Of a DNA stretch of 64,000 bases, positions 13,336 to 63,736 are shown piece by piece. How positions within the stretch are numbered: position 1 is the first letter of the stretch; every line of letters starts with the position of its first letter. The notes under the pieces are model-generated. The model worked only from the letters and a program-made list of their open reading frames with translations, did no database searches and was not told the origin of the DNA. This stretch comes from Bacteroidaceae bacterium (GTDB lineage: Bacteria > Bacteroidota > Bacteroidia > Bacteroidales > Bacteroidaceae). Both the position numbers and the translations under genes were made by a program. The stretch lies in contig JAGCNZ010000096.1 in the NCBI GenBank assembly GCA_017645655.1, positions 24,187-88,186 on the forward strand. Direction: 5' to 3'.

Positions 13336-13407
13336 AATTCTCAATTCATAATTATCTTCTTCGCGGAAACTCAGGGCGTTGCCTAATTGTGCATTACGAA
13401 TTATGCA

Positions 13408-14235: not shown

Positions 14236-14258
14236 AACTATGAATTATGCATTATGAA

Positions 14259-15962: not shown

Positions 15963-15985
15963 AATTCACAATTCATAAATCATAA

Positions 15986-17954: not shown

Positions 17955-18044
17955 CAGTGATGTTTTCAATTATCACGTGTAATATTTTTATTTTAACGTG
18001 TAATATTTCCAATTATCACGTGTAATATTTTCAATTATCCCGTG
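17955..18044. repeat. CACGTG-core phased repeat array, locus A3
   Basis: Cores CAGTGA 17955, CACGTG 17974, AACGTG 17995, CACGTG 18017, CCCGTG 18039. Spacing 19/21/22/22. Unit is CACGTGTAATATTT(T/C)CAATTAT. Confidence 0.8.
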
Positions 18045-18074
18045 TGTAGTTTTGTGAGTAAGCGAATTATTTTG

Positions 18075-27895: not shown

Positions 27896-27951
27896 CAGCC
27901 AGAATTTAACGAGAGAGACCTTTTTCAAGGGCTTTCTTGTTGAACTATGCA

Positions 27952-28086
27952 CACTGCGTTTGCAATCACGGCACGCTGTGTTTGCAAACATCACACGTGA
28001 TGTTTACAATTATTACACGTTATATTTAAAATATTACACGTGATATTTGAAATCATCCCACGGTGTGTTTTCAGACCTGACACGAT
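27952..28086. repeat. CACGTG-core phased repeat array, locus A4
   Basis: Cores CACGCT 27972, CACGTG 27994, CACGTT 28016, CACGTG 28037, CACGGT 28059, CACGAT 28081. Spacing 22/22/21/22/22. Confidence 0.8.
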
Positions 28087-28102
28087 ATAATAAAAACTGA
28101 AT

Positions 28103-38235: not shown

Positions 38236-38308
38236 AATTCATAATTCATAGTTGACCTCTTCCATACCTTCACGAGGGAAGGCATCCTGTTTCTCTCCCT
38301 CAGGGGAG

Positions 38309-40311: not shown

Positions 40312-40446
40312 AGCGTGCTCGCAAAACACGGCACGTTATGTCCGCAAACATCACGTGTTATGTTTGCAATTATCACGTGTAATATTTCAAATATCACGTG
40401 TTAAAATTGCAATTATCCCACGTTATGTTTTTCGGCGTCGCACGCT
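40312..40446. repeat. CACGTG-core phased repeat array, locus A5
   Basis: Cores AGCGTG 40312, CACGTT 40332, CACGTG 40352, CACGTG 40374, CACGTG 40395, CACGTT 40419, CACGCT 40441. Spacing 20/20/22/21/24/22. Confidence 0.8.
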
Positions 40447-46615: not shown

Positions 46616-48328
46616 ATGAAAAAGACTTTCAAAACATTCGCACTCGTGTTGCTGACTGCTTTTGCTTTCAGCAGCTGTGTTGACGTACCGGCTCCTTACA
46701 ATCTGCCAGACAAGACTAGCAATACAGATGGAGACGGCGGTGGCTCTTCGTCCAGCGAGGGCACTCCTATCACATGTGCACAGGCTGTCGAGCTTACAAA
46801 CGCATTGGCAGATGGCGCAACATCTTCTGAGACTTATACCATCACTGGTTACATCACCGAAGTTGTTGGCGATGTTAGCCGCAATCAGCAGACCTTCTGG
46901 ATGGCCGACACCAAGAGTGGCGGCAGAGTCTTCGAGGCATATTGGGCAAACCTCCCTGAAGGTGTGACAGCCTTCACGGCAGGCACGAAGGTTAAGATTA
47001 CAGGTAAGCTGATGAAGTACGTGAATGCAAACAACGGCAACGTGATTGCCGAGATGAAGAACGCTATTGTTACAATCCTGGAAGACGATGGCAGTGGCAG
47101 TGGTGATACTCCTGCCGAGGGCACTGCAGTCACATGTGCTCAGGCTGCCGAATTGACAAATGCCCTTCCCGATGGCGGTACTTCAAGCGAGACTTATACC
47201 GTCACAGGTTACATCACTGAGGTTATTGGAAACGTTAGTCGCAACCAGCAGACCTTCTGGATGGCTGATACGCAGAATGGTGGCAGAGTCTTCGAGGCGT
47301 ATTATGCTAACCTTCCCGAAGGCGTAAGCGAGTTTGCAGTCGGCACAAAGGTAAAGATTACAGGCCAATTGATGAAGTACGTGAACAATAGTGGTCAGGT
47401 AACTCCTGAGATAAAGAACCCGACTGTCGTGATTCTTGAGCAGGGTGGTGGCGAGACACCTCCTCCTGCAGTGGATGGCATAGCAGTTACTTGCGCTGAG
47501 GCTGTTGAACTTACCAACGCACTTGCCGATGGCGGCACATCAGCTGACGCTTATACCGTCACAGGTTACATCACCGAAGTTGTTGGCAATGTCAGCCGCA
47601 ACCAACAGACCTTCTGGATGGCCGACACACAGGATGGTGGCAGAGTCTTCGAGGCTTATTATGCAAACCTGCCTGCAGGCGTCAGCGCATTCGCCGTTGG
47701 CATGAAGGTGAAGCTTACCGGTCAGCTGTTGAAGTATGTGAACAACACGAGCGGTCAGGTAACGCCGGAGATAAAGAATGGCGACGTCGTTGTTCTTGAG
47801 CAAGGTGGTGGCGATACGCCAGAGCCTCCGACTCCCGGTCCTGGCGGCGAGACTGTGTCAGATCTCGTGAACGGCGACTTCGAGAGTTGGGTAAGCGATG
47901 CAGAGCCTACGGGTTGGAAGTCGGCAAGCACCGCAAGCAATGCTACGCTGAGCAAGAGCACAGATGCTCGCAACGGCAGCTTCGCATGTATGATAGCTGC
48001 TCCGGGTTCTGCAAACAAGCGTCTCGCTACGCAGGAGATAACGCTCGAGGCTGGCTCGTACACCTTCTCGTTCTACGCAAGGTCGACCAGCGCGAGTCCC
48101 TGCCAGACGCGTGGTGGCTATGTGCCCATCAAGGATGACGGCACAGTAGATACATACAGGTATGGAGACTACACCGACATCAACAACAATGGTTGGACGC
48201 TTGTATCGTACGACTTCACGCTCGACGCTCCGACGACTCTTTGCCTGCTCGTCATGAATCCTAAAAACAGCAACTACTCGACCTCTCAGGACATCCTGGT
48301 CGACGATGCTACGCTGGTAAAGAACTAA
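46616..48328 (+). CDS. Lipoprotein with three tandem OB-fold-like domains of about 119 aa and a C-terminal CBM4/9-like jelly-roll
   Basis: Lipobox FSSC. The block (I/V)TCAQA.ELTNAL.DG.TS..(T/A)YT(I/V)TGYITEV(V/I)G(D/N)VSRNQQTFWMAD...GGRVFEAY.ANLP occurs three times. The tail begins DLVNGDFESW. ATG 46616 is preferred over TTG 46574. Confidence 0.6.
   Translation: MKKTFKTFALVLLTAFAFSSCVDVPAPYNLPDKTSNTDGDGGGSSSSEGTPITCAQAVELTNALADGATSSETYTITGYITEVVGDVSRNQQTFWMADTKSGGRVFEAYWANLPEGVTAFTAGTKVKITGKLMKYVNANNGNVIAEMKNAIVTILEDDGSGSGDTPAEGTAVTCAQAAELTNALPDGGTSSETYTVTGYITEVIGNVSRNQQTFWMADTQNGGRVFEAYYANLPEGVSEFAVGTKVKITGQLMKYVNNSGQVTPEIKNPTVVILEQGGGETPPPAVDGIAVTCAEAVELTNALADGGTSADAYTVTGYITEVVGNVSRNQQTFWMADTQDGGRVFEAYYANLPAGVSAFAVGMKVKLTGQLLKYVNNTSGQVTPEIKNGDVVVLEQGGGDTPEPPTPGPGGETVSDLVNGDFESWVSDAEPTGWKSASTASNATLSKSTDARNGSFACMIAAPGSANKRLATQEITLEAGSYTFSFYARSTSASPCQTRGGYVPIKDDGTVDTYRYGDYTDINNNGWTLVSYDFTLDAPTTLCLLVMNPKNSNYSTSQDILVDDATLVKN
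46757..47830 (+). repeat. Three tandem coding repeats (periods 360 and 357 nt)
   Basis: Repeat starts are read at 46757 (EGTPITC), 47117 (EGTAVTC) and 47474 (DGIAVTC). Confidence 0.85.
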
Positions 48329-48348: not shown

Positions 48349-49257
48349 ATGAAAAAGTTCGCTTTCATATCATTCCTCTTCCTTAGTCTGTGTCCGTCGC
48401 TTCGGGCTCAGCAATATGCCACGATACTCTATCGTCAGAGCGAAATGCCACGGGCAGTTGCTGTCACTGAGATAGATTCTGTCGTGGTGCGCGATGTGGC
48501 TGAGGTAGATGCTACGTATTTCGATACGCCCAAGGACACCGTCTATGTGGCACAAGTTCGCGAGTCGCATTGGAAAGGCAAGAAGGTGGCTTTCCTGGGC
48601 GACAGCATCACGCAGTATGCTGAGTATGTCAATGCCTATGCCAGCCTGACAGGCTGCGAGGCATTGAACTACGGCATCTCTGCCACGCACATGGCATCGA
48701 GGAACAATAGCGACACGAATGCTTTCGACAAGCGATACAACAAGATGCCGACACAGAGCAGGGTCGATATGGTCGTGGTCTTCGGAGGCACGAACGACTT
48801 CGGGCATACCAATACTGCTGAGTTCGGAGAGTTCTCCGACGGGCCGAAGGTGGGTAAGTACTCCTTCTATGCCGGCTTGCATCGCCTTTTCAAAGGTCTG
48901 CAAAACCGTTACTCGAACATCCCCGTCGTCATTATGCTGCCTCTTCATCACGGCACGGAGATTGACTGCCCGGAGTATGTGATTAACGGCACGACCATCA
49001 CTGAGGGTACTAATCCCACGACGGGCAAGACTTTCCGTGAGTATGTGAATGCCATCCGCGAGGTAGCCGCCTACTATTCCTTCATTGTGCTTGATGCTTA
49101 CAGCTACAGCAACCTCAGTCCCATGACTGAGATTGGCAGCGGCAGCAGTGGCTTCTTCCAGGACGGATTGCACCTCAATCAGGCTGGCGGCATGCGCTTG
49201 GCACGATGGATGTACCCGCAGCTGGAGGCTGTATACGAAATGTTCTACGACTTCTAA
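48349..49257 (+). CDS. SGNH/GDSL-type hydrolase
   Basis: Signal peptide. Block I FLGDSIT, block III FGGTNDF, block V DGLHLNQAG. ATG 48349 is preferred over TTG 48334. Confidence 0.7.
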   Translation: MKKFAFISFLFLSLCPSLRAQQYATILYRQSEMPRAVAVTEIDSVVVRDVAEVDATYFDTPKDTVYVAQVRESHWKGKKVAFLGDSITQYAEYVNAYASLTGCEALNYGISATHMASRNNSDTNAFDKRYNKMPTQSRVDMVVVFGGTNDFGHTNTAEFGEFSDGPKVGKYSFYAGLHRLFKGLQNRYSNIPVVIMLPLHHGTEIDCPEYVINGTTITEGTNPTTGKTFREYVNAIREVAAYYSFIVLDAYSYSNLSPMTEIGSGSSGFFQDGLHLNQAGGMRLARWMYPQLEAVYEMFYDF

Positions 49258-50151
49258 ATGCGAAAACTTCTCACATCTTCCCTTTTCCTCTTGACGTCCA
49301 TCCTCTACGCGTACGATGTAGAGGTGGACGGCATTTGCTATAACCTCCTTGGTACGAGCATGGCGTATGTCACCTACAGAGGTGGCGACATGTTCGAGCC
49401 GAATGGTTATTCCGGGGATGTCGTTGTGCCGTCACATATTGTCCACAACGGTTTCACCTACCGCATTTTTAATGTCGGCCCCAGTGCATTTGCCGATTGC
49501 GAGGGGCTGACGTCTGTCCAGCTGCCTTCTACGGTGCGAGGCGTCAGTGGAAGTGCGTTCCTTGGGTGTACCAACCTTCGTCAAGTCGCATTGCCGAGCG
49601 ACCTGCTTGGCTTGGGAGGCAGCGTTTTTGCGGGTTGCACGTCTCTGCAAGAGGTGTCTCTGCCGCGCCGTCTGGATGAAGTTGACACGCTGATGCTCTA
49701 TTGCTGCGCATCCCTGACATCGGTTGTCTTGCCCCATCGCGTCCGCAGAGTCTGCCAAGGGTCGCTTGTGCATCTGCCCTCGATGAGGCATCTCTACGTC
49801 TTTGCCTCCACGCCGCCTACGGCAGATCAGGGTGCCTTCACGCTGAAAGACCAGCAGCATTGCACCCTTCACGTCCCGCGAGAAGCCCTGCAGCAATACA
49901 AGCAATCGCCCATCTGGCGTGAGTTCTATCGCATCGTGGTGCTGGGCGACGCGGATTATGCTGCGCATGATTATCAGCGTGGCGACATCAACGATGATGG
50001 CAATGTGGACGCCGAGGACCTTGCTTTGCTGCGTCGCATCGTTGTCAGCCTGCCCGACGATTCAGCCGTACGTTGGGCAGCCGACATCAACGGCGATGGC
50101 AAAATCAATTCAGTTGATTACGTTTTGTTGTCGAAGAGCATTGGCGAGTGA
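49258..50151 (+). CDS. BspA-type LRR protein with C-terminal dockerin-like module
   Basis: 297 aa with a signal peptide. LRR_5 units (SAFADCEGLTSVQLPSTV...), and two EF-hand-like dockerin repeats DINDDGNVDAEDLALLRRIV and DINGDGKINSVDYVLLSKSI. Confidence 0.75.
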   Translation: MRKLLTSSLFLLTSILYAYDVEVDGICYNLLGTSMAYVTYRGGDMFEPNGYSGDVVVPSHIVHNGFTYRIFNVGPSAFADCEGLTSVQLPSTVRGVSGSAFLGCTNLRQVALPSDLLGLGGSVFAGCTSLQEVSLPRRLDEVDTLMLYCCASLTSVVLPHRVRRVCQGSLVHLPSMRHLYVFASTPPTADQGAFTLKDQQHCTLHVPREALQQYKQSPIWREFYRIVVLGDADYAAHDYQRGDINDDGNVDAEDLALLRRIVVSLPDDSAVRWAADINGDGKINSVDYVLLSKSIGE

Positions 50152-50336
50152 GTTGCCGCACGGCAACATACGAGTTTTCCAGGGCTGATTGCTCTTTGCT
50201 CCCTCGGAGCGAATCTCGTTGCCCAGGGACTGATATTCGGTTCACCCCATAGGTGGACCTTTTTGTCCTGTTTGCATTTTGTAACAAAAAGCATTCTTTT
50301 GCTTTCTTTTTGCTGTTTTTGCACACAACGTAACGT

Positions 50337-50480
50337 GCCGAAAAATGCGTCGAAACAGGGCAGATTTTCTGTTGCGGCGTGCTGTGTCGGAAAATATGGC
50401 ACGTTATATTTGAAATATTACACGTGATGTTTGAATTTTCACTACGCTGCGATTGCGGAAACGACACGCCAAAAAGTGTG
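50337..50480. repeat. CACGTG-core phased repeat array, locus A6 (degenerate edges)
   Basis: Cores AACGTG 50342, GGCGTG 50386, CACGTT 50410, CACGTG 50431, CACTACG 50450, CACGCC 50475. The CG dinucleotides are spaced 44/24/21/22/22. Confidence 0.7.
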
Positions 50481-50752
50481 CAAAAACGAGCAAAAATGAC
50501 TGGTTTTGCCAGGTGGAGATGGCAATTTGTCCATTGAAGATTGAAAGTCGAAGATGTGATGCGGCTGGTAACAGCCTGATACAGAATCGATTCTAAAACA
50601 CTTTCGTTCTAAGCGCTTCTTTTTATAAAAAGGTACAAAAGTGCCTCCGAGGGGATTTTAGGCGATTCTGGCGAGTCGGTCAAAAATGTGTGTGTAAGCA
50701 AAATGGTGAAAAAAGAAGCAAAGTGTCAGAAGCGTCATAATGAATCTTGGCG

Positions 50753-50792
50753 CGCGAAAAGCGGCAGGTTTGCATTGGAGCAAGCCTGCCGC
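50753..50792 (-). terminator. Hairpin plus T-run after the CotH/T9SS gene
   Basis: The minus strand reads GCGGCAGGC-ttgctccaatgcaa-ACCTGCCGC, followed by TTTTCG. Confidence 0.45.
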
Positions 50793-50853
50793 TATGTCGT
50801 TCTATGCGTGGCGTCACATTTTGTGTCGTCTCATCTCGCTCGCCCTCAGGGCG

Positions 50854-53800
50854 TTACTTTACCTTGACAAAGCGCTTTTGTCCACCCACAATGTAGATTC
50901 CCGTCTTTGTGATACGGTCGATGCGGGTGCCGCTGAGGGTGTAGATGGGCGCTTCCTCCAGGTCCTCGAGCCTTGTGGCAATGCCATCAGCATCGTCGAA
51001 GACGCTGACCGTGGCAGTTCCCTTCTTGTTGGAACCGTCGGTAGCCTTGGCGGTGATGATGGTCGTGCCGGAGGACAGGGCAGTGATAATGCCTTCGTCA
51101 ACCGTTGCTACCTCCTCGTTCGAGCTCGTCCAGGTGAGTGTCTTGACGGTTGCCGCCTCGGGCAGGATGCTGACGAGCAGCGTCGTATCGTTGCCTGCCA
51201 GCATGTCGATGACGTTCGGGCTCAGCTCGATGGAGGTGACGTATGTCTTGGCGAGGGTGACGTCGTATTCCACATCGCTTGCCCTCGTGCATATGCCATC
51301 TGCAGTAGCGAAGCACTGATTGCGTATTTGGTAGGTTCCTCCAGCGAAGTTATCTGCTCCGGCCAGGGTGAAGGTGAGGGCAGTGCCCGTCGTGGCACCG
51401 AGGTTCTCGTTGCCTGGAGCGTAGACGATGATGTGTGCTCCGTTAAGCATCGGGAGGCAGATGGTGTTGTGAGCAGCCGTGTTGACTCTCGTGTTGAAGT
51501 CGAGACTGCCTTGCTGTATCGATAGGCCTTGCGAGAGGATGATGTCAGCTTCGTAGGCTGTCGCGGCTCGGCTCGTGTTCAGCCATACCGTCACCTTGCG
51601 TGTGCCGCTGGCTTTGACGGATGCATTGCTTGAATAGAGCGTTGCCTCGAGTTCCTGGGTGCCGAGCGGCACCTCGTTGAGGATGCGACGTACCGTGACG
51701 ACGTCTGCCACGTCGATGCGGCTGTCGAGGTTGGCATCGGCATTGATGACTTCGAATCCCGCAGGCTCGTCTCCCGTCAGGTACGCCGCTATCCATTCGG
51801 CATCCGTCTCGTCGAGCACTCCATTGCTGTTCACGTCGCCAGCCAGGTTGCTCACGTTGTAGTAAACGCCCGCATCGTTCTTAAGTACCACGAGGTGCGT
51901 GGCATCGAAGGTCGGATAAGCATCCTCGCCAAGCGTCTGATACCAGATGGGCTCCAGGGTTATGCCGTTGTTGAGCATATAGCAGAGTTTGCCGCTTGTC
52001 ACGTCGTCGCTGGTGATGCGGTTCACCTGCGTGGTCGACGTGCTGTAGCAATTCACGGCGCTGGCTCCTCCTCTGTAGAAGTCGTTGCGGTAGTTATAGC
52101 CTTCCACGGTGCCGATGTTGTAGCAGTTCTGTAGCGTCGCGTTTGTTCCCATCCATCCACAGATGGCTGCGCTCTCGCTGCTGCCGCTGACGTTGCCAGT
52201 GTTGTAGCAGTTGTAGAAGAAGAATGTGCTGACTGCACCCTTGTTGCAGCCGATGATGCCGCCCGCATTGTAACCGCTTGCCGTCACGTTAGCCTCGTTG
52301 CCCACGCGCGAGAAGGTCACGTTGCCTGCCGTCGTGGAACCGCCTGCCAGCCCGACATAATTGTTTCCCTCGATGGAGCAGGTGCTGTCGAGAATCAGGT
52401 TGCTGATGGACGCGCCTCCACCCACAGCGCCGAAGAGGCCAGTGTAGTCTCCTCCTGTGACATGTAGGTTGCTGATGCGATGCCCTTGTCCGTCGAAGAG
52501 ACCACGGAAGGGCCTCGAACTGGTGCCAATCGGCGTGAACTGATCATTGTAGTCAGCCATGTCGATGTCGTTCTCAAGATATGCGTTGCTGTACTGCGCA
52601 CCTTCCGCAACGGCCTCGGCAAGCTCGATTATCTGCTCGGGCGATGTGATGAAGTATGTGGAGTCGGTGTAAAGCGTGCCCGGGTTATAGCCGAGGTAAT
52701 TGTCAATCCAGTTCAGTCGGGTAGGGATGTAGCTGCGTAGCACATCCACTTCCGCCTCGAAAGAACCGAGCGCGGAAACGTTCTGGTGAACACGTTGATT
52801 GAGGATTGGCCATCGAATGAAGTTGAGGTTAGCGGACGCTTCTATCTCCGTTGCCATGCTGTCGACGTAGTCCACGAGCGTCTTCTCATCAAGAGAGCCT
52901 TCCTTTCTATTGTCCCTCCACAACTGATTGAGCATTTGGTCTGCAGCACCGTCGCTGAGGACGCGGTTGACAAACGAACGCATGTCGCCCGCACAACTGC
53001 CGCCACGGAATGCCCAGTCGCTGCGTCCGTTGACTGGATAGATGCGTTCGTCGTTGTCGAATGCCAGGTCGAAGTCCCAGCAGGGAGATACATGGAACTG
53101 ATCCTCCAGGCGCTCCTTATACATGTACGTGCTCCAGTAGGTGTCCATGTTGCCCGAGAACTCGCCAACGATGAAGTGCTTGAGGAACGACTCCACGTCG
53201 AGATACTTGCGGAAACCGTTTTCCGGGTCGGTATAGTTGCTTGCAAAGAGAGCTGACTCCATCAGGTTGAAGTGCCCCTTGATGTAGTTGTGCTGCTCTG
53301 TCGTGATGTCGTCGTCGCCCGGGTGCTTGATGGTTACCGGGTTGCCCCGGTTGCTGCTGAACCAACTCGTCTCCTGGCTGGCGTATGCATCAACCTCGAC
53401 AAGATAGCCACCGGTCAGCATCGGCTCTTCGATGTCGTCGGGCGTCATCTCTGTGATAGGCACACGATGCGGGTCCACGGAAATCTGGTCGCAGAGCTGG
53501 TAGCAACCCTTGTATTCGCCATTCATGATGACGTCCACGGGTTGTGCCCACGGCGTGTATGGCAATCCCAGACGCTTGCTCACCTCGAAGGCAAGGCAGT
53601 TACGCATGAGAGTCTTGTCGCCGTAGTTGTTGATGAGCGTCCACTTCTTGGCTTTCGCCGGACTCTCCATTGCCGAACCTCTAAGCATGTGATGGCTCTT
53701 GCCGTCGGCAAACTTAATGCGCCACGGCTTCTTCGGGAAACCCCAGGATGCGTTGCCTCTGCCTCGAGCTGTGATGGGATACTCCTGGATGCGGGTGCCA

Positions 53801-54417
53801 CCGTCGTAGGTAATCGTGATGTTCGACGGTATCTCATTGACCTTGTCTTGAGGATCACTGCCCGTGGAGGTGTGTATGCTGACCGTCGGCAGGTTGGTTA
53901 TTTGGTACCATTGGGTATCGTCGCCCTCGCCCTCGTATCCATAGAATTCGAGTTCAGCGATGTTGCAGCGTGCGTCGTTCGGTCCGACGTAACGCACATA
54001 TCGGAAGCCTCGCGAGACAGGCACGTCGGCATAATCCATCTTTCTGGCTGTGCCGGTGTTGGGTATGAGATAAAGCGGGACAGCATCAAGGAAATCGGGA
54101 CTGTTGCTGCCTTCGAAGACAGCAAGTTGAACTCGTCCAGTCTGGCTGGTGCGAGGGCTCCAACCTACAGAGGTGATGACATGAGGCGTGCCCAGGTCGA
54201 GTCCTACCCACGTGTTTGAGCGTCCCATGGAGGCATAGAAAGTGTCATAGTCACCGTCGAAAGCATCGGCAGGTGTATTGACTGTCGTGCTCGATTGGCT
54301 GGTGTTGTAGTCTATGTTTGGCGAGCCGATAGGGGTGCCGCTTAGTTTCGTGGAAGTTTGTGCGAAACTTTGCATCACTGCAAATAGCAGAAGTGATATG
54401 GTATTTAGTCTTTTCAT
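50854..54417 (-). CDS. Multidomain secreted protein: F5/8 type C (discoidin), CotH kinase-like, GLUG repeats, dockerin-like, Big_2 and T9SS C-terminal domain
   Basis: CotH motifs (ARGRGNASWGFPKKPWRIKF; LINNYGDKTLMRNCLAFEVSKRLGL; GEYKGCYQLCDQI; CWDFDLAFDND). GLUG/NCYN.G modules. GDVNSNGVLDETDAEWIAAYL and DANLDSRIDVADVVTVRRIL. Big_2 (LTWTSSNEEVATV). C-terminus PIYTLSGTRIDRITKTGIYIVGGQKRFVKVK. ATG 54417 is preferred because 54435 is TTG and only 5 nt from the -7 box. Confidence 0.8.
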   Translation of the reverse strand: MKRLNTISLLLFAVMQSFAQTSTKLSGTPIGSPNIDYNTSQSSTTVNTPADAFDGDYDTFYASMGRSNTWVGLDLGTPHVITSVGWSPRTSQTGRVQLAVFEGSNSPDFLDAVPLYLIPNTGTARKMDYADVPVSRGFRYVRYVGPNDARCNIAELEFYGYEGEGDDTQWYQITNLPTVSIHTSTGSDPQDKVNEIPSNITITYDGGTRIQEYPITARGRGNASWGFPKKPWRIKFADGKSHHMLRGSAMESPAKAKKWTLINNYGDKTLMRNCLAFEVSKRLGLPYTPWAQPVDVIMNGEYKGCYQLCDQISVDPHRVPITEMTPDDIEEPMLTGGYLVEVDAYASQETSWFSSNRGNPVTIKHPGDDDITTEQHNYIKGHFNLMESALFASNYTDPENGFRKYLDVESFLKHFIVGEFSGNMDTYWSTYMYKERLEDQFHVSPCWDFDLAFDNDERIYPVNGRSDWAFRGGSCAGDMRSFVNRVLSDGAADQMLNQLWRDNRKEGSLDEKTLVDYVDSMATEIEASANLNFIRWPILNQRVHQNVSALGSFEAEVDVLRSYIPTRLNWIDNYLGYNPGTLYTDSTYFITSPEQIIELAEAVAEGAQYSNAYLENDIDMADYNDQFTPIGTSSRPFRGLFDGQGHRISNLHVTGGDYTGLFGAVGGGASISNLILDSTCSIEGNNYVGLAGGSTTAGNVTFSRVGNEANVTASGYNAGGIIGCNKGAVSTFFFYNCYNTGNVSGSSESAAICGWMGTNATLQNCYNIGTVEGYNYRNDFYRGGASAVNCYSTSTTQVNRITSDDVTSGKLCYMLNNGITLEPIWYQTLGEDAYPTFDATHLVVLKNDAGVYYNVSNLAGDVNSNGVLDETDAEWIAAYLTGDEPAGFEVINADANLDSRIDVADVVTVRRILNEVPLGTQELEATLYSSNASVKASGTRKVTVWLNTSRAATAYEADIILSQGLSIQQGSLDFNTRVNTAAHNTICLPMLNGAHIIVYAPGNENLGATTGTALTFTLAGADNFAGGTYQIRNQCFATADGICTRASDVEYDVTLAKTYVTSIELSPNVIDMLAGNDTTLLVSILPEAATVKTLTWTSSNEEVATVDEGIITALSSGTTIITAKATDGSNKKGTATVSVFDDADGIATRLEDLEEAPIYTLSGTRIDRITKTGIYIVGGQKRFVKVK

Positions 54418-54439
54418 TTCGTTGTTTTTGTTCAACCTG

Positions 54440-54447
54440 CAAAGGTA
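54440..54447 (-). promoter_or_regulatory. -7 box (TACCTTTG on the minus strand) for the CotH/T9SS gene
   Basis: The plus strand reads caaaggta, 23 nt upstream of ATG 54417. Confidence 0.5.
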
Positions 54448-54552
54448 TGTTTATTTGCTTAATTTTGCAAGTAAAATGCCTATATTTAATTATATAATGT
54501 ATGGAAATGCAAATAAATTGCAATAAAAAGGCAGAAACAAAGCAGAAATGTT

Positions 54553-54560
54553 TAACTTTG
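54553..54560 (+). promoter_or_regulatory. -7 box (TAACTTTG) for the 54584-57682 operon
   Basis: Lies 24 nt upstream of ATG 54584. Confidence 0.5.
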
Positions 54561-54583
54561 CAACGTGAAATATATGATTAAAG

Positions 54584-55936
54584 ATGAGTAGGCTTATTCG
54601 AATTGCCCTGTTGTGCTTCCTGCCGCTATATGCTTTGACGGCTCACTGCCAGGGCGACATGACGCGCGAAGTGTCAGCTGACACCGTGATGTGGCCCGTG
54701 CCGCAACTCGACCCGAGCTGGATGCTGGAGTATTTGCCTCACAACAACGCCAACCACAATGTCTATGTCTATAAGGACAAGCTTTACGACGACCTCTTTA
54801 CTCGCACCAAGGGATGGAACGGCGGCGATGGTGTACAGACGACGGCATTGCCTGGAGGCAACGTCTTCTGGAGCTTCAACGATAGCTTCTATGGTGTCGC
54901 GACGGGTAAGCCAACCAGGATTCGCAAGTCGTGCAACTTCCCTCGCAACAGCATCATGGTGCAAACGCCGGGCGACGACGGATTGCCGGGCACGAAGACG
55001 AGCAACTTCAAATGGCTTGCCGACTGGGTGCAGCGCTCGAGCGCTTCGTCGAGTGGCTACTACCATGCCCGCACACACCTCCGTCACCCGAAAGGTGAGA
55101 AGACGGAGGCGCAGATCAGGAGTGGCGAGACTGACCAGACATACCTCTATTGGGCAGGAGACGGTACGGTGGTGGACGGCCAATTGCAAGTCCTATGGGC
55201 AGGTGTCTATAATGGTTCCGAGAACCTCATGCAGAGCGACAACAGGGCTCTGGCTATCTACTCGCTTGAGGGCACGCCGGGTAGCTCGACATATCTCCAG
55301 TTGTTGAGTGTCGACCATGACTTCTTCGCGCAGGACCCGATTGGATACGGGCAGACGCTCTGGGAAGACGAGGACGGTCACACCTACCTCTATGCCTGCA
55401 ATCAGTTCAAGAAGAACCCTGAGGACGTGCTGAACACATCTTCGCCGGTTGTTGCCCGCTCCGCCACGCACGACCTTCGCTCTGCTTGGGAATACTATGT
55501 TGCCGATGCCAACGGAACCTTCCACTGGCAGAGCACTTATCCGACAAGTGCGGAGGTGAACCGCTCGGCCATCACCTCGCGCAGCGTTTCGACTGCCTGG
55601 GTCTTCAAGGACGGCGATTGGTACTACATGACTGCACAGGGCTATGTCTTTTCCAAACAGCTTTACATCATGCGAAGCCGCTACCCATGGGGACCTTTCG
55701 AGGAGTGCCATCAGCTCTGGACTATGCCGTGGGTGCTCGACAAGACGGGCGTAAGGACGTACGGCAAGTTCTATATGCCGCACCTCCATCAGTCGCTGTC
55801 ACGTCAGGGTGAGCTCGTCTTTTCCACCAATACTGACTGCGAGAACTGGAACGACAACTTCAATTCGAACGGCTCGGCCGACTTCTACCGGCCTTACTTC
55901 TTCCGCATCTACAACTGGAAGGCCATTTTCGAGTGA
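54584..55936 (+). CDS. Secreted DUF4185/DUF5005-like beta-propeller protein (putative glycoside hydrolase)
   Basis: 450 aa with a signal peptide. TKGWNGGDGVQTTALPGGNVFWSFNDSFYG resembles the DUF4185 N-terminal signature. The assignment is from memory of that motif. Confidence 0.45.
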   Translation: MSRLIRIALLCFLPLYALTAHCQGDMTREVSADTVMWPVPQLDPSWMLEYLPHNNANHNVYVYKDKLYDDLFTRTKGWNGGDGVQTTALPGGNVFWSFNDSFYGVATGKPTRIRKSCNFPRNSIMVQTPGDDGLPGTKTSNFKWLADWVQRSSASSSGYYHARTHLRHPKGEKTEAQIRSGETDQTYLYWAGDGTVVDGQLQVLWAGVYNGSENLMQSDNRALAIYSLEGTPGSSTYLQLLSVDHDFFAQDPIGYGQTLWEDEDGHTYLYACNQFKKNPEDVLNTSSPVVARSATHDLRSAWEYYVADANGTFHWQSTYPTSAEVNRSAITSRSVSTAWVFKDGDWYYMTAQGYVFSKQLYIMRSRYPWGPFEECHQLWTMPWVLDKTGVRTYGKFYMPHLHQSLSRQGELVFSTNTDCENWNDNFNSNGSADFYRPYFFRIYNWKAIFE

Positions 55937-55970
55937 ATGGCGACCGACGTCTGGTAAATGTAAATTGAGT

Positions 55971-56801
55971 ATGAACATGTCAAGATTTCTTCGTCACAAT
56001 ACCTTAAGCATCTGCACTCTGCTGGCTGCATTCTGTTGCGTGTTGAGTTCCTGCTACAAACTCATCTCCACCTTTGCCCCGGAGGAAGTGGCGCCAGGGC
56101 AGACGTTCGAGGTTAGCTTCACTGTCGTCGATGATGGTTCTGACACGCAGAACTTTGTGACGGACTGGAGCTATGCAGGCATCAGGGTGCCCAATGGCTG
56201 GACGGTGACCGTGCCAGCGGGAGCGCACAGGCAGTTCGCGGAGGATTGGGTCTACTATCAGGACGGCTCTCAGGTCAATAGTTCTCATGACATGGAGCCT
56301 TGCGCGAAGCTTACCCAGTTCTATAATTCCGCCTGTCCCAGGTCGGGTTATACGTGGTCGGGCTTCAAAAGCGTGACCAAGATACCGAAGAACATCTCTG
56401 CCTGCTGGCGGAACGGATGTGACAGCATCCGCATCACGTTCCTCATCACTGTGCCCGAGGACGCCAATCCTGGCCGCTATCACATCGACTTCATGGGGGG
56501 CGACGAAGAGGACGACGCAGGTATCGACAAGTACAGCAACCTTTCGTCTGCCAAGGATTCGCGTCTTTTCCACGTCGGCACCGCCAGCGGCTCCTACGTA
56601 GACAACCGCAATGCAGCCCTTGCTCGCACAGTCGTCGTGACCGACGCGACAGGCCTGAAGGATGTTCGGAATATGGAATTGTCTGACGCAAAGCAACTTA
56701 AAGATGGCAGAGGTCGCATTTATGACCTCTCCGGCCGGCGTGTCTCGGCAAGACAGGAAGGCATAGTCATCGAAAACGGTAAAAAGAAATACAAGCAATG
56801 A
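55971..56801 (+). CDS. Hypothetical surface protein with lipobox-type signal and T9SS C-terminal sorting domain
   Basis: MNMSRFLRHNTLSICTLLAAFCCVLSSC. The C-terminus GRIYDLSGRRVSARQEGIVIENGKKKYKQ. ATG 55971 was chosen; the longer track ORF overlaps the previous gene. Confidence 0.5.
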   Translation: MNMSRFLRHNTLSICTLLAAFCCVLSSCYKLISTFAPEEVAPGQTFEVSFTVVDDGSDTQNFVTDWSYAGIRVPNGWTVTVPAGAHRQFAEDWVYYQDGSQVNSSHDMEPCAKLTQFYNSACPRSGYTWSGFKSVTKIPKNISACWRNGCDSIRITFLITVPEDANPGRYHIDFMGGDEEDDAGIDKYSNLSSAKDSRLFHVGTASGSYVDNRNAALARTVVVTDATGLKDVRNMELSDAKQLKDGRGRIYDLSGRRVSARQEGIVIENGKKKYKQ

Positions 56802-57682
56802 AAGCGTTTCTCGTCATGCTCCTATGCCTGCCTGCTTACTCGCAAAGCATGGTGGTAAACACCACTTCGGGCAGTTCGACACCCTATCCGATACGTCAGG
56901 TGGAGCCCCTCACCTTTACCGACGAAACCGTAGAACCCGTTCCGCCATCGGCCAAGATACAGATGAAGCGCAGCATCGTCTTCCTCGGCCACAGCATTTG
57001 GCGCAACGATAACTACTTCGTGAGGTACCAGAACTCGGGTACTTTCGTGACCCCCTTCACTGGCACCTTCAAGGGGAGAGGCTATCAGACGCTGCTCCAG
57101 GAGGTCTTCGACTTTCCCGCCGTCTATTCGCCAGGCCCGGATGGAGGCTATAGTGGCTATTCCCTGGGCGGCACCAGCGCTACCGACGACAAGAGCATCG
57201 CCGTAGTAGCCCAGCAGTCGGACAACGGCTGGCCGAGCATCCAGAACGCCATCTGGACGATAGACTTCATTACAAACGACTTCAAGCGGAACGTTCCCCT
57301 CGGCACTTACGCAGACTACAAGAGCGCGACAGGCCCGTCAACATTCTACGGAGCGGTGCGTCAGTTGTACGACAAGATTAAGGAACTTTCCGGAAGCGAC
57401 GTCATCATCGTCTTCAGCAACGCCACTAAGCGCAACAACTCGAACTATACCAGCACCAGCCAGAACACTGTTGGGTGCACGCTTGCCGACTATGAATTGG
57501 CCTTGCTGACCTGCGCCGCGGCAAACACTAACTGGTATTTCGTGGACCAGAACCGTCTTTCGGGCATCACCGACGAGAACCTCCCCGCCGTGACAGCCGA
57601 TGGTCTTCACCTCAACAACCTCGGCTACAAGATGGCCGTCCAACCCTGGATAGCCGTCCTGCGAACGCTGTCCGATAAATGA
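56798..57682 (+). CDS. SGNH/GDSL-type hydrolase
   Basis: Its ATG overlaps the previous stop as ATGA. It has a signal peptide, FLGHSIW, TNDF and DGLHLNNLGY. Confidence 0.65.
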   Translation: MKAFLVMLLCLPAYSQSMVVNTTSGSSTPYPIRQVEPLTFTDETVEPVPPSAKIQMKRSIVFLGHSIWRNDNYFVRYQNSGTFVTPFTGTFKGRGYQTLLQEVFDFPAVYSPGPDGGYSGYSLGGTSATDDKSIAVVAQQSDNGWPSIQNAIWTIDFITNDFKRNVPLGTYADYKSATGPSTFYGAVRQLYDKIKELSGSDVIIVFSNATKRNNSNYTSTSQNTVGCTLADYELALLTCAAANTNWYFVDQNRLSGITDENLPAVTADGLHLNNLGYKMAVQPWIAVLRTLSDK

Positions 57683-57705: not shown

Positions 57706-57798
57706 AACGTGCCATGATGCCAAACGTCACGTGGGTAAAATGAAATTATCACGTGTAATATTTCAAATATCACGTGGGTAAAATTGAATTATCACGTG
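57706..57798. repeat. CACGTG-core phased repeat array, locus A7 (inverted relative to A8 and A9)
   Basis: Cores AACGTG 57706, then CACGTG at 57728, 57750, 57771 and 57793. Spacing 22/22/21/22. Confidence 0.85.
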
Positions 57799-57978
57799 GG
57801 CTCTTTTCAGGCCTCACTGCAAGTGTCAGTCGTGATGCCGTTCTGTTAACTACTAATAAACGGCGGGCTTAAACTAAATAAATATGTTAAAAGGTGGTGC
57901 TTGGCGCTGCCTTTTTTTGTTTTTCTCTTGTCGGGGTTGCATAAAGTCCGTTCCTTTGCAGATGAAAAAGCGAATGTT

Positions 57979-58365
57979 ATGAACGAGAAGAAGACTATGA
58001 AACCGCTCACACGCGCTGAGATGGAGGTGATGAACGTACTTTGGGATGCCGATCATGCCCTTACGGTTAATGAGATTGTGGATGCCTATTCCGAGCCCAA
58101 GCCTGCCTACACGACTGTTGCAACCTTCCTGAAAATCCTGGAGGCGAAGGGCTACGTGGAGCACAAGCGCAGGGAGGAGACGGGGCGTACCTTTTACTTT
58201 TCGCCCATGCTCTCGCGCGAGAAATACATCGCCCATGTGGTGAACGATGTGAAAGACACGCTTTTCGGCAGTTCGACTAAGAGTTTCTGCTCTTTCCTCA
58301 TACAGAATGAGGAGCTTTCGGACGAGGAATTGCAGGAGATACTCTCTTTGATTCACAATTCTTAA
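57979..58365 (+). CDS. blaI: BlaI/MecI/CopY family transcriptional repressor
   Basis: Winged-helix MKPLTRAEMEVMNVLW...TVNEIV...YTTVATFLKILEAKGYV. ATG 57979 is preferred over TTG 57901. Confidence 0.8.
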   Translation: MNEKKTMKPLTRAEMEVMNVLWDADHALTVNEIVDAYSEPKPAYTTVATFLKILEAKGYVEHKRREETGRTFYFSPMLSREKYIAHVVNDVKDTLFGSSTKSFCSFLIQNEELSDEELQEILSLIHNS

Positions 58366-58385
58366 TCCGCAAATAACAGTTAACC

Positions 58386-60065
58386 ATGTTGGCTTACATT
58401 ATAAAATCTGCGTTGCTGCTGGCAATCCTTTACGGGAGTTTTGCCCTGTTGTTGAGTCGTGAGACGTTCCATCGCTTCAACAGAATCGCTCTGCTTGGCG
58501 TGCTTGTGGCTTCGTTGGTGCTGCCTTTTATTCAGCTGACGATACAGAAGCCGGAGTTCCTCAGCTATGATGAAGTCCCCATGCAGGACGCTTTTGTCCG
58601 GTCGGACATACTTTACGAAGAGGAATATGACGTTCCCCAACTCGCAGAACTACCAGAGAGGGTAAGCACGTCGGAACAAGATTGTCCTTTCGCTCCTCCT
58701 TTGGAGGGGATGGTGGAGGCAGTCTATCTTCTCGGCGTCTTTGCTTCCCTCGCCATCTTCTTCGTGCAGCTCTTCCGTCTTTGGCAAGAGACGAGGGGCG
58801 GCGTGCATGCGAAAGACGAGCTGGGCAACACGGTTGTCATTCGTGGAGGCAACTTCGCGCCTTACAGTTTCCTACATTATATAATAATAAATGCTTCGGA
58901 CTACGAGCACCTGCGGCAGCCCATCTTGGCTCACGAGCAAGCTCACATCCGTCTCGGACACACGTATGACCTGCTTCTCTTGGAACTCGTGAAGGCCGTC
59001 CAATGGTTCAATCCCTTCGTCTATCTCTTGGGGCGCGACCTGAAAGCCGTGCATGAATACGAGGCCGACGACGCTGTACTTTCCTTTGGCATCGATGCAA
59101 AGACATATCAACTCTTACTCGTGACGAAAGCTGTGGGCAGCCGACTGCAGACGGTCTGCAATAGTCTCAGTCACCATTCACTTAAGAAAAGAATCAAGAT
59201 GATGCACAAAAACAATTCCAACCGCTGGCTGATGGGCAAAGCACTCATCCTGCCGGCTCTCATGGCGCTGGCCTTAGTTGCATGGGCCAAACCAATATCC
59301 GCTGATTCCCCAAAGGAGAGAACTGCCGAGACTATTACTGAAGTAAGCGACCAAGTACAGGACGACAAGCCCGTCACAGTAGCTGTGCCTGGAATGGGAC
59401 TTGTTACGACCGATGAGGTACAAGGCATCTCGAAGAAGAAAATGCTGAACGCCTTTATCCCAAAGGATAATGCAAAAGACTTTATCAAGAAGCACGGGCC
59501 GGCAATTACAGTCTCGTGGCTGAAAGGCACCTGGGTAGTGAAAGGCGACAACTCCTTCGTAGAAGAGCATCCCGATTGCGGCTATCCAATGGCGTTTCAT
59601 ACGAATTTCTATAAAGTCATGCTCGACGGCAAGGAACTCGACATCAACAATCTGCCGGATCTGCCTGCTTCGGCGCTGAAGAAGGTGGAGATGCACTTCA
59701 AGGAAGGCAGTGGAACGGTCAACCTCATCACGAAGCCCGTGCAGATTCCTGCTGGCGTGAAGGGCAACATCAACCCCGAGCTGACCATCCTCTTGACTGG
59801 AACACCTCCGAAGGACAGTGGCGCAAAGACAACTATCTGGGAAAGGCGGGGCAACTTCGATGGCTTCAGCTGGAAGAACTACACTATCTGCTCGTGGAAA
59901 TGGGACGTCGACGACATCAGCGTTCACCTGAAGGAAGTCGCCATCCGCAAGGACCACAGCGTTCGTATCAACGTCTGCAAGGGCGTTCCGCAAGGCCACA
60001 TCGACCGCATCAAAGGCATTATGAACGAATGCAGCGTGACGAACTACAGGTTTGTCAGGCAGTAG
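58386..60065 (+). CDS. blaR1: BlaR1/MecR1-like M56 peptidase-domain membrane sensor with an unassigned C-terminal domain
   Basis: 559 aa with N-terminal TM helices. Zinc motif LAHEQAHIRLGH, followed by EYEADD. The C-terminal residues from about 290 to 559 show no motif I recognise. Confidence 0.8.
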   Translation: MLAYIIKSALLLAILYGSFALLLSRETFHRFNRIALLGVLVASLVLPFIQLTIQKPEFLSYDEVPMQDAFVRSDILYEEEYDVPQLAELPERVSTSEQDCPFAPPLEGMVEAVYLLGVFASLAIFFVQLFRLWQETRGGVHAKDELGNTVVIRGGNFAPYSFLHYIIINASDYEHLRQPILAHEQAHIRLGHTYDLLLLELVKAVQWFNPFVYLLGRDLKAVHEYEADDAVLSFGIDAKTYQLLLVTKAVGSRLQTVCNSLSHHSLKKRIKMMHKNNSNRWLMGKALILPALMALALVAWAKPISADSPKERTAETITEVSDQVQDDKPVTVAVPGMGLVTTDEVQGISKKKMLNAFIPKDNAKDFIKKHGPAITVSWLKGTWVVKGDNSFVEEHPDCGYPMAFHTNFYKVMLDGKELDINNLPDLPASALKKVEMHFKEGSGTVNLITKPVQIPAGVKGNINPELTILLTGTPPKDSGAKTTIWERRGNFDGFSWKNYTICSWKWDVDDISVHLKEVAIRKDHSVRINVCKGVPQGHIDRIKGIMNECSVTNYRFVRQ

Positions 60066-60078
60066 TCCGAAAACTATC

Positions 60079-60191
60079 CACGTGATGATTGAAATTTACC
60101 CACGTGATAAATTCATTTTACCCACGTGATATTTCAAATATTCCACGTAATAATTTCATTTTACCCACGTGACGTTTTACGTCGCGACGTG
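60079..60191. repeat. CACGTG-core phased repeat array, locus A8
   Basis: Cores CACGTG 60079, 60101 and 60123, CACGTA 60144, CACGTG 60166, then TACGTC 60178 and GACGTG 60186. Spacing 22/22/21/22. Confidence 0.85.
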
Positions 60192-60302
60192 CCTGCTGAG
60201 AATCTGCGACTTATTTAGTTTTTGGTTTATACAGTTAGTAAAGCGAGACTCAAAAGGCTTCGCCGGCTCCGATGCGCTGTGACGGTGCATCGGAACCTGC
60301 CG

Positions 60303-61632: not shown

Positions 61633-61677
61633 CGAAGAAATTGTGAAAAATGAATTGTGAATAATGAATTATATTAG

Positions 61678-62398: not shown

Positions 62399-62436
62399 TC
62401 CTTCTCCACTGCGTGACGCAGATTAAACTTATCTGA

Positions 62437-63360
62437 ATGAGCGGCGAACTGCTTTCCCTCCTTGTTGCTGTGATGTGGACCTTCACGGCACTCTTTGCTG
62501 AGGTCGCAAGCAGACGAATGGGCACGCTTGTGCTCAACGTGTGGCGCATGCTAATCACCATCCTGCTGCTCGGCCTTGTGCTCTGGCTGACGTGTGGCAA
62601 GCCTTGGCCTCAATATGCCAGTCCCGAGGTGTGGAAATGGTTCCTGGCAAGCGGTTTCATGGGCTTCGTCTTTGGCGACTACTGCCTCTTCAATGCCTAC
62701 ATCGTGATGGGAAGCCGTTTTGGGCAGCTCTTCATGACGCTTGCCAGTCCGTTTGCCGCCATAGCAGCATGGCTTATGATGGGCGAAACGATGAGTCTGC
62801 TGGCATTGCTCGGCATGATTGTCACGCTGAGTGGCATTGGCATCTCCATCATGGGTAAAGACGACACGGGCAGCCGACACCTGAAACTCCCTCGGAAGGG
62901 ACTCCTGCTGGGCATCGGTGCGGGTATGGGACAGGGCGTTGGACTCGTCCTGAGCAAGCAAGGGCTGATGCATTATGCGGCAGAGATTCCTGCCGAGGCA
63001 ACGGATGTCGCAGCCATGATGCCCTTTGCTGGAACTCAGATACGAGCCGTGATGGGACTGGTTGGCTTCGGCGCAACGCTCCTGTTCTTGCGGAAATGGC
63101 GCAACATGCTTCGTTTCTTCACTGACCTGCGAGGCGCTGCCGCAGCAATGGGAGCCATCCTCTTAGGTCCTTTCTTCGGTGTCAGCCTCAGCCTGATGGC
63201 AGTAGGGATGACGAATGCTGGCGTTGCACAGACCCTGATGTCGCTCACCCCGATTCTCATCTTGTGGCCCTCGCGACTGATGTTCGGCACGAAGGTCAGC
63301 ATGCAGGAGGTGGTAGGAGCCGTCATTGCCGTTGCCGGAGCATCACTTTTCTTCATGTAG
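62437..63360 (+). CDS. DMT superfamily (EamA-like) transporter
   Basis: 307 aa with 10 predicted TM helices in two EamA-like halves. Confidence 0.7.
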   Translation: MSGELLSLLVAVMWTFTALFAEVASRRMGTLVLNVWRMLITILLLGLVLWLTCGKPWPQYASPEVWKWFLASGFMGFVFGDYCLFNAYIVMGSRFGQLFMTLASPFAAIAAWLMMGETMSLLALLGMIVTLSGIGISIMGKDDTGSRHLKLPRKGLLLGIGAGMGQGVGLVLSKQGLMHYAAEIPAEATDVAAMMPFAGTQIRAVMGLVGFGATLLFLRKWRNMLRFFTDLRGAAAAMGAILLGPFFGVSLSLMAVGMTNAGVAQTLMSLTPILILWPSRLMFGTKVSMQEVVGAVIAVAGASLFFM

Positions 63361-63426
63361 AGTGACGAATAAGAACTTTTTGCTAATTTTCTTATCCTCT
63401 TATTTTCTTATTCCCTTAATTTGTTG

Positions 63427-63434
63427 TATCTTTG
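63427..63434 (+). promoter_or_regulatory. -7 box (TATCTTTG) for tRNA-Ser
   Basis: Lies 18 nt upstream of the mature tRNA 5' end. Confidence 0.55.
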
Positions 63435-63451
63435 CACCCGCAATTTGAAAA

Positions 63452-63538
63452 GGAGAGATGCCAGAGTGGTCGAATGGACCGCACTCGAAATGCGGCGTAC
63501 TCTTACGGGTACCCTGGGTTCGAATCCCAGTCTCTCCG
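63452..63538 (+). tRNA. tRNA-Ser (anticodon CGA), class II with long variable arm
   Basis: Acceptor GGAGAGA/TCTCTCC plus discriminator G. Anticodon stem CCGCA/TGCGG with loop CTCGAAA. Long variable arm. T-arm CTGGG-TTCGAAT-CCCAG. No encoded CCA. Confidence 0.9.
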
Positions 63539-63543
63539 CACGG

Positions 63544-63575
63544 AAGGCAACCGAGTTGGTTGCCTTCTTGCTTTG
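63544..63575 (+). terminator. Rho-independent terminator after tRNA-Ser
   Basis: Stem aaggcaacc / ggttgcctt, followed by cttgctttg. Confidence 0.55.
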
Positions 63576-63598: not shown

Positions 63599-63710
63599 AG
63601 CGTGTTTGCAAACGCGGCACGTGATGTTTGAAATTCTCCCACGTGATAAATTGATTTTACCCACGTGATATTTGAAATATTACACGTGATAATTTGATTT
63701 TACCCACGTG
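63599..63710. repeat. CACGTG-core phased repeat array, locus A9
   Basis: Cores AGCGTG 63599, then CACGTG at 63618, 63640, 63662, 63683 and 63705. Spacing 19/22/22/21/22. Confidence 0.85.
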
Positions 63711-63736
63711 ATGTTTCTTCCCCTCGCGAGCGACGT

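Follow-up and report, generated by a model that had tools for sequence, protein, structure and literature searches.

The question raised by this locus is whether a blaI-blaR1 operon that lies between two nearly identical inverted repeats is a mobile cassette, or whether the repeats simply belong to a family scattered over the chromosome. The locus is part of a 64,000-nucleotide stretch from a Bacteroidaceae bacterium (GenBank assembly GCA_017645655.1, contig JAGCNZ010000096.1, positions 24,187 to 88,186 of the forward strand), which we refer to as the window and whose numbering is used unless another contig is named. An initial annotation, made from the sequence alone, had reported three nearly identical 78-bp segments, two of them (in arrays A7 and A8) bracketing the operon (blaIR) and the third (in A9) further downstream, and had raised the possibilities of recent copying, of inversion or deletion between the copies, and of a composite-element-like mobilisable cassette. 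We favor a different account, to which we give a probability of about 0.65, namely that A7, A8 and A9 are members of a lineage-specific, non-coding family of dispersed minisatellites whose arrays are present in roughly one in three gaps between genes on this rumen Bacteroidales chromosome.

As to the repeats themselves, the initial annotation was accurate. The 78-bp strings at 57723-57800 (as reverse complement), 60099-60176 and 63638-63715 are letter for letter those it quoted, and the number of mismatches in 78 positions is 6 for A7/A8 (72 of 78 identical, in inverted orientation), 5 for A7/A9 and 6 for A8/A9. Local alignments among the three scored 69-81 with A7 inverted and A8 and A9 direct, as had been described, versus merely 26-31 in the opposite orientation; all remaining pairs of arrays scored ≤59, so that A7, A8 and A9 are mutual closest relatives. 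The spacings, given as ~2.3 and ~3.4 kb, measured 2.3 kb (A7-A8) and 3.46 kb (A8-A9). When the three were aligned together with their flanks, the homology was found to be slightly longer than 78 bp, at ~90-100 bp, with an extra unit upstream of the core that is intact in A8 and A9 and degenerate in A7, and with ACGTGAYGTTT downstream of the core in all three; the flanks beyond are unrelated. All three have the unit order b-a-b with a higher-order period of 43 bp (Tandem Repeats Finder, TRF). In its full extent A7 (57718-57800, minus strand) comprises 4-5 units of 21/22 bp within the 3' region of a GDSL-lipase gene, with degenerate, GC-richer edge units reaching to ~57700, and ends 38 bp left of a conserved blaI leader and 179 bp before the blaI ATG. 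A8 (60066-60223 including degenerate edge units, core 60077-60181; plus strand) lies on the 3' side of blaR1, its start 13 bp from the stop codon, and A9 (63600-63720, position weight matrix (PWM) cluster 63616-63720; plus strand; 5-6 units) has a tRNA-Ser terminator hairpin on one side and the 3' end of a HAD hydrolase gene on the other. An assembly artefact is ruled out by independent contigs of rumen metagenomes, drawn from at least four samples, in which the arrays recur at 99.97-100% identity. The sequence likeness supports one common origin for A7, A8 and A9, and to that extent the proposed copying stands (shared b-a-b order, 43-bp period, nearest relatives); that it was very recent does not, since the copies are only ~93% alike compared with 99.97% between strains.

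Each array is a head-to-tail run of 21/22-bp units anchored on ACGTG, and with the units contiguous and no spacers between them a reading as a CRISPR array was ruled out. The two unit types of the b-a-b order are ACGTGATAAWTYSATTTTACCC (b) and ACGTGATATTTSAAATATTMC (a). In general the units have an (A)CACGTG core with an AT-rich stretch after it and are often palindromic, e.g., ATRTTTSAAAYAT, and the edges of arrays are formed by degenerate units richer in GC, of the type GGCACGYTGTGTTTGCAAAC. Where the b units of A7 and A8 all have a C, those of A9 both have a G, a small sign of homogenization within an array. In the window, CACGTG clusters spaced by 21/22 bp were found at eight sites, and a PWM scan of the 64 kb found 9 multi-unit clusters, every one of them intergenic. 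Arrays thereby occupy 9 of the ~27 gaps of ≥60 bp (26 listed gaps plus the leading edge of the window), though intergenic DNA makes up only ~10% of the window. Members of this strictly intergenic family occur in every gene-orientation context, between divergent (ilvD/GH59, OmpA/proS), tandem (fba/lptFG, GDSL/blaI) and convergent genes (blaR1/ArsP, tRNA-Ser/HAD), and the DNA in which it resides is ordinary core chromosome (ilv genes, PFOR, proS, ribBA, lptFG, fba). A further 14 kb of the same genome (contigs L025 and L001) held two more small arrays, neither of them b-a-b. Within the window the other members are A1 (81-137, plus strand), a divergent subtype with the unit ACGTGAAGTTTGTCA... 3' of a GHL10 gene; A2 (17964-18046, minus strand), between the divergent ilvD and GH59 genes; A3 (27945-28096, plus strand), with the conserved promoter of proS (TACTTTTG) on one side and the proS ATG on the other; A4 (40335-40434, minus strand), between fba and lptF/G; A5, described below; and a composite array (6626-6778, minus strand) in which ACGTG-type units in 22-bp register are followed by three units AGCGCCCGCCAAAAGATTTCGT (100% matches by TRF). 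The composite array gave one PWM hit only and was recognized as an array by reading the sequence; it is 81% identical to an array of a related contig (L022, 19275-19472) that lies between different genes. The position of A3 (27905-28080) is the 5' untranslated region (UTR) of proS, an essential gene.

The operon that A7 and A8 bracket consists of a blaI-like gene (57979-58365, plus strand; Pfam Penicillinase_R) and a blaR1-like gene (58386-60065, plus strand; Pfam Peptidase_M56 only), and the gene identities that had been proposed for it and its neighbors held up, with Pfam matches to Penicillinase_R, Peptidase_M56, ArsP_1+HMA, PNP_UDP_1 and EamA and with the tRNA-Ser found by both ARAGORN and Rfam. 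In the BlaR1-like protein the Peptidase_M56 match at residues 177-273 was the only one and no penicillin-binding sensor domain was detected; a beta-lactam-sensing role is therefore unproven. Searching with BlaR1 orthologues (74-83% identity) we obtained seven further contig sets of five kinds (L008/L009; L010, identical to L024; L011/L012; L013; L022; L023), among which L010 is an NCBI metagenome-assembled genome (MAG) labelled Bacteroidaceae bacterium. By blastn, 57838-60068 is one conserved unit in all of these relatives, with its right end at the blaR1 stop and its left end, the first base of the blaI leader, a synteny boundary in every relative. The link of blaIR to the ArsP/HMA permease, mtnN and tRNA-Ser genes is kept in L008, L010, L011, L022 and L023, and L013 is the one relative examined that lacks it. 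In L010/L024 the same genes occur with no arrays on either side of the operon. The blaR1 stop directly adjoins a conserved terminator-like hairpin in L010 and L011 (by eye, likewise in L022), where the window has ~158 extra bp (60066-60223) made up entirely of units in the 22-bp register; A8 thus represents a lineage-specific insertion in the blaR1 3' UTR, since its site is empty in L010, L011 and L022. The A9 site is similarly empty in L008, L010, L011 and L023, in which no array follows the tRNA-Ser, and A3 is absent from the OmpA/proS gap of L010/L024. Comparative gene order hence indicates that individual arrays are lineage-specific insertions at sites empty in relatives, and that blaIR is a stably placed chromosomal operon and not cargo.

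This part of the chromosome showed several other features in the comparison. The blaI leader (57838-57978, plus strand), which reads TGTTAACTACTAATAAA...ATATGTTAAAAGG and continues into a hairpin resembling a terminator, with a T run, and a TTTGCAG resembling a promoter element (TGTTAACTACTAATAAA...AACTAAATAAATATGTTAAAAGG for the part ahead of the hairpin), is better conserved than the coding DNA and present in every relative; a small RNA, an insulating terminator and the real operator region are candidate identities for it. The blaR1/ArsP junction (60066-60302; compared in L008, L010, L022 and L023) is a hot spot for gene insertion, with 0, 1 or 3 extra genes depending on the relative: a 274-residue hypothetical protein; a 972-residue protein (L023); DUF2207, LemA and a hypothetical protein; or GH43, FG-GAP and a 986-residue protein. 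The segment carrying EamA and tRNA-Ser (62436-63569) is inverted in L023 (18587-19718), tRNA-Ser alone is inverted in L008, L011 and L022, and EamA is absent in L010, L011 and L022.

Outside this lineage the unit sequence turned up in chance matches only. The core 20-mer AAATATTACACGTGATAWTT, which by our count occurs 6 times within the arrays of the window, had 3 hits in 185,579 GTDB species genomes and 8 in JGI metagenomes, all of them single chance matches without an array, and no hit in IMG/VR viral contigs. A blastn search with A9 had no match to the plasmids of PLSDB or the phages of INPHARED, Rfam at gathering thresholds matched tRNA-Ser alone and nothing in the arrays, and a literature search for CACGTG with Prevotella, or for 22-bp repeats in Bacteroidetes, turned up no account of such a family. 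In the data searched, the sequence family appears to be restricted to this species or lineage.

The relatives nonetheless have intergenic 22-bp tandem arrays of their own, built from other units: AGCAACGTGTTGCCAGCCATCC and ACACACTAGTAAACTGCAGTCC in L008, AAGTACGTGTACTTATCCCCAT in L013, GACGCGTGAAGTTTCCAAAGTT in L010, AACACTATACGATTGCAAACAT in L011 (matching the c unit of the window at 16 of 22 positions in our comparison), and AACTAGGCGTGGCTAATTGGCA, AGTACTACCGTGCGAGTACTGG and ATTTTTCAGCGCCCGCTGAAAG in L022. Across 202 kb of the clade, 31 of 71 tandem arrays (TRF score ≥50) had a period of 21, 22, 43 or 44, compared with no period-22 array in 81 kb of unrelated contigs, and unlike unit types abut in register in the window (6626-6778), in L022 (19275-19471) and in L008 (11756-11988). 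How such arrays change was seen best in L008 and L023, whose flanks are 95-97% identical: orthologous arrays keep their edge units and differ in the sequence of the inner units as well as in their number (4 versus 3 and 4 versus 2), and in L023 the three inner units have the same sequence. Conserved edges with fast, homogenized cores indicate classic minisatellite behavior under concerted evolution. In L013 (9800-9990 and 14020-14170) the array is part of an element of ~170 bp whose copies have in common a leader and a tail hairpin (CTTCCCWAAGAGGGAAG) and whose ends resemble terminal inverted repeats (TIRs; ATGATAATCCG / CGGATTATCAT), one copy being inserted between blaI and blaR1; from this structure, mobility of the kind shown by MITEs (miniature inverted-repeat transposable elements) may exist in some lineages. 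A second repeat class, period 7/14, is the next commonest in the clade (21 of the 71 arrays) and comprises heptamer microsatellites, (AATTCAT)n or its complement (ATGAATT)n, at 13321-13353, 14239-14267, 15956-15987, 38221-38250 and 61639-61672 in the window and at 9860-10000 in L008; these fill short intergenic spacers up to the start codons and so produce runs of out-of-frame ATGs.

Among described elements the closest, judged by architecture and distribution, is BrickBuilt of Porphyromonas gingivalis, which Klein et al. (2015; PMC4596501) present as a 23-nt tandem, intergenic, species-specific minisatellite/MITE with 19 copies, a leader, a tail, IS5-like TIRs and up to 23 units. BrickBuilt shares with the window arrays a Bacteroidales host; imperfect, spacerless direct tandem units about two turns of the helix in length (23 nt versus 21/22 in the window); many dispersed copies that are always intergenic and in every gene-orientation context; a sequence limited to one species or its nearest neighbor; and a copy number that varies by locus. 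An array within a ~170-bp element with leader, tail and TIR-like ends, a further likeness to BrickBuilt, was seen in the relative L013 only. The window arrays differ from BrickBuilt in that they have no non-repeat leader or tail and no TIRs (the flanks of A7, A8 and A9 are unshared), are shorter (3-7 units versus up to 23), and have units alternating in a 43-bp higher-order pattern. The IS5-type TIR GAGACCTTTGCA had 64 matches in the window at ≤3 mismatches, versus 63.5 expected, and none was paired at array ends. Repetitive extragenic palindromes (REPs) and the bacterial interspersed mosaic elements (BIMEs) they form, the GTAG/CGTC-tagged repeats reviewed as recombination and rearrangement hot spots by Di Nocera et al. 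(2013; PMC3733652), resemble the window arrays in being short (20-40 bp), species-specific intergenic units, palindromic here in some unit types, that are often tandem or clustered and occur in UTRs. They differ in that the window units have no GTAG or CGTC tag in register according to our unit lists, are strictly head-to-tail with a fixed period, and are non-palindromic in about half of the unit types; moreover, a RAYT (Y1 transposase) gene was seen neither in the window (64 kb) nor among the Pfam hits listed for ~200 kb of contigs from relatives. The BOX elements of Streptococcus pneumoniae, boxA-(boxB)n-boxC with distinct A and C end modules, are also modular intergenic repeats with variable inner tandem modules and more conserved end modules; they come from another phylum, their unit size and sequence are unrelated, and the ends of the window arrays are merely degenerate units. 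We therefore file the window arrays as dispersed intergenic minisatellites or REP-like repeats that belong to neither BrickBuilt nor REP/BIME, the separation from BrickBuilt being one of architecture.

It had also been proposed that the arrays are substrates for recombination. They do share exact tracts: 42 bp between A7 and A9 (inverted), 28 bp between A7 and A8 (inverted), 20 bp between A8 and A9 (direct), 33 bp between A4 and both A7 (direct) and A9 (inverted), and 23 bp between A5 and A7 (inverted). Tracts of 20-42 bp are at or just above the minimal efficient length for RecA-dependent recombination in E. coli, and on sequence grounds a role as recombination substrates is plausible. Inversion or excision of blaIR itself was seen in 0 of 6 same-strain contigs that carry the operon, all of which agree with the orientation of the window. 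Indirect evidence that recombination between arrays takes place comes from beside blaI, where a four-gene block (CotH, DUF5005, NPCBM-like, GDSL; 50891-57680) is inverted relative to its counterparts in L011 (2568-9293) and L022 (2234-9088), both flanks keeping their orientation. In all three species this 6.8-kb block has arrays at both of its junctions, namely A5 (50375-50460, plus strand; left junction) and A7 in the window and arrays homologous to them in L011 and L022, and since CotH also faces blaI in L008 and L023, it is the arrangement in the window that is derived. We consider this inversion a likely example of an array-mediated rearrangement. Elsewhere, a 3-kb GH43/FG-GAP indel separates L008 (12151-15187) from L023 (12087-12701), genomes that are 95-97% identical, and its right end lies inside a 22-bp array (TTTCCTTCAGCAAGCATCAGCT). 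Short same-strain contigs end within or beside A7, A8 or A9 (L003 at 57751 and 63748, L004 at 57665 and 60127), as would be expected from repeats alone, and strain-level variation at arrays would have the same effect.

These results bear on the two readings in which the arrays act as ends of a defined unit. If a composite, mobilisable blaI-blaR1 element ended in A7 and A8, inverted relative to each other, and A9 were a third such end, the inverted likeness of A7 and A8 and their position within 38 bp (A7) and 10 bp (A8) of the boundaries of the conserved unit, the left one a synteny breakpoint in every relative, would be accounted for. The linkage of blaIR, ArsP and mtnN is, however, ancestral and exists without arrays in L010/L024, A8 interrupts a junction that is otherwise contiguous, and arrays of the same family flank many unrelated genes. 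Nor was the expected machinery seen: the arrays are non-coding, no TIR was found outside the repeat, and a search for target-site duplications (TSDs) at the A8 insertion gave nothing beyond a trivial TAG. Pfam found no transposase or recombinase in 39 of the 43 called open reading frames (ORFs) of the window plus the partial HAD gene, a scan that left out ORFs at 45.7-54.4 kb, three of which show none in the precomputed Pfam lists for L001. The annotation had asked whether in related genomes the cassette is present, absent or inverted exactly at the arrays; instead, blaIR is mostly at the same backbone position with or without them. Because the same genes occur without arrays in L010/L024, and arrays occur in many unrelated gaps, observations of the kind that the annotation had itself named as refuting, blaIR is not the cargo of a composite element, and we regard the cassette as scarcely credible. 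A programmed invertible region, in which a site-specific recombinase acting on the arrays flips blaIR or the 6.8-kb block within populations, is in our estimate very improbable, if marginally less so. Both segments are flanked by inverted arrays, as in Bacteroidales invertons (here with exact runs of 28 bp for A7/A8 and 42 bp for A7/A9), the block has opposite orientations in the window and in L011/L022, and L003 and L004 end inside or beside arrays. Against this, every same-strain contig long enough to tell has a single orientation, the difference in block orientation is fixed between species and not polymorphic in the data, assembly alone is expected to break contigs at repeats, and the recombinase that invertons have encoded nearby was not found among the scanned proteins of the 64 kb.

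Searches for a cellular role of the arrays by folding, orientation, Rfam and operator motif found no consistent evidence for one, and two further candidates were dropped. A scheme in which all units form hairpins, the CGTG loop being constant and the arms covarying, fits L013, L008, L022 and the c units of the window and not the b unit of A7-A9, and as a general rule it fails in about half of the unit types. Tandem promoters (a -7-like GAtnTTTG, 5/6) are, in our reading, at odds with the -33/-7 spacing of Bacteroidetes promoters, which the 22-bp period does not fit, and with the relatives' units that have no such motif. Phased binding sites, one per 22-bp unit on one helix face, for a lineage-specific DNA-binding protein (nucleoid-associated, a global regulator or partition-like), with units diverging between species through co-evolution of site and protein, would explain the strict 21/22-bp period (about two turns of the helix) kept by different unit types and in different species, the CACGTG/ACGTG core recurring in the window, L008, L010, L013 and L022, the exact 21-mer ACGTGATATTTGAAATATTAC common to A4, A7 and A9, and the strong palindromes among several unit types (arms of 10, 8 and 8 bp, reached in 0 of 300 shuffles). 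We think this doubtful, as about half of the unit types are non-palindromic (the arms are 10 bp in the c unit and 6 bp in the a unit, and the b unit specific to A7-A9 is no better than shuffles), arrays are missing at orthologous sites in relatives with the gene layout unchanged, inner units are homogenized within an array and not conserved between orthologues, and the flanking genes have no common theme (ilv, proS, fba, lptFG, glycoside hydrolases, blaIR). The canonical BlaI/CopY box TACAnnTGTA had a single match in the window, at 20163 in GH59, with none in the arrays or upstream of blaI. An RNA or single-strand role like that of REP/BIME, with UTR hairpins ending transcription or protecting mRNA ends, has in its favor the placement of A8 in the blaR1 3' UTR upstream of the conserved terminator hairpin, of A7 in the GDSL 3' region and of A3 in the proS 5' UTR, as well as the folding of A8(+) and A4(-), which is much better than that of shuffles (z = -4.7 and -3.2, respectively). 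We hold it to be unlikely, since A7(+) and A2 (z = -0.4 each) fold no better than shuffles, the direction of the arrays is not consistently tied to that of flanking transcription or to the GC skew, which is uniformly positive, divergent promoters too can have an array between them, Rfam gave no match to them, and the units have no GTAG/CGTC tags of the REP super-families (PMC3733652). Similarly unlikely, in our estimate, is the broader proposal of a clade-wide, actively maintained 22-bp system of rumen Bacteroidaceae in which a putative trans-acting enzyme or binding protein would recognize the units, copy them from one intergenic site to another and drive recurrent inversions and gene insertions around loci like blaIR; the fixed two-turn period, the (A)CGTG core, the variable and often complementary arms, the unit types joined in register, the rapid inner turnover and the location at breakpoints are the features behind it, and the present evidence does not require a dedicated factor of this kind.

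A dispersed, lineage-specific minisatellite family, as we prefer, would account for the locus as follows. Arrays would grow and shrink by replication slippage or unequal exchange, and, through gene conversion or ectopic recombination over short patches, may seed each other or replace each other's sequence; this would be most efficient between neighbors, and three adjacent arrays would for that reason share the b-a-b arrangement. MITE-like transposition in trans might be a further route of spread in some relatives. That arrays bracket blaIR would then be a by-product of array density, with a chance of ~(1/3)^2 of arrays on both sides of an operon, together with local spread, and as dispersed homology tracts of 20-42 bp the arrays might occasionally mediate inversions or indels. 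Several points count against this account. It is drawn from ~78 kb of the genome, the local spread of b-a-b involves 3 of ~12 arrays, and no donor/recipient pair, TSD or transposase was found for the spread. For the 6.8-kb inversion, alignments at the L011/L022 junctions were too ambiguous to locate the breakpoints within A5 and A7 with confidence, and the presence of arrays at ~4 of 6-7 synteny breakpoints, versus a baseline of ~1/3, is a suggestive association that is not significant. Finally, the constancy of the 22-bp period and the ACGTG core across species whose units differ could reflect selection by a DNA-binding factor.

For annotation, it follows that the blaI-blaR1 pair should not be labelled a mobile or composite element. 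Short-read assemblies can be interrupted at the arrays, where two same-strain contigs end, and the arrays also mark differences in gene order among related rumen Bacteroidales, and they consequently matter for MAG scaffolding and pangenome work. Were a dedicated trans-acting factor to exist after all, the system would be a Bacteroidales counterpart of REP/RAYT and a handle on genome rearrangement. Apart from the arrays, we observed in this Bacteroidales genome Dockerin_1 domains on LRR_5 and CotH proteins (48349-54417; 8424-11768), and long coding repeats of 360 bp x3 (46756-47814), 261 bp x1.9 (10629-11129) and 69 bp x4 (8696-8977).

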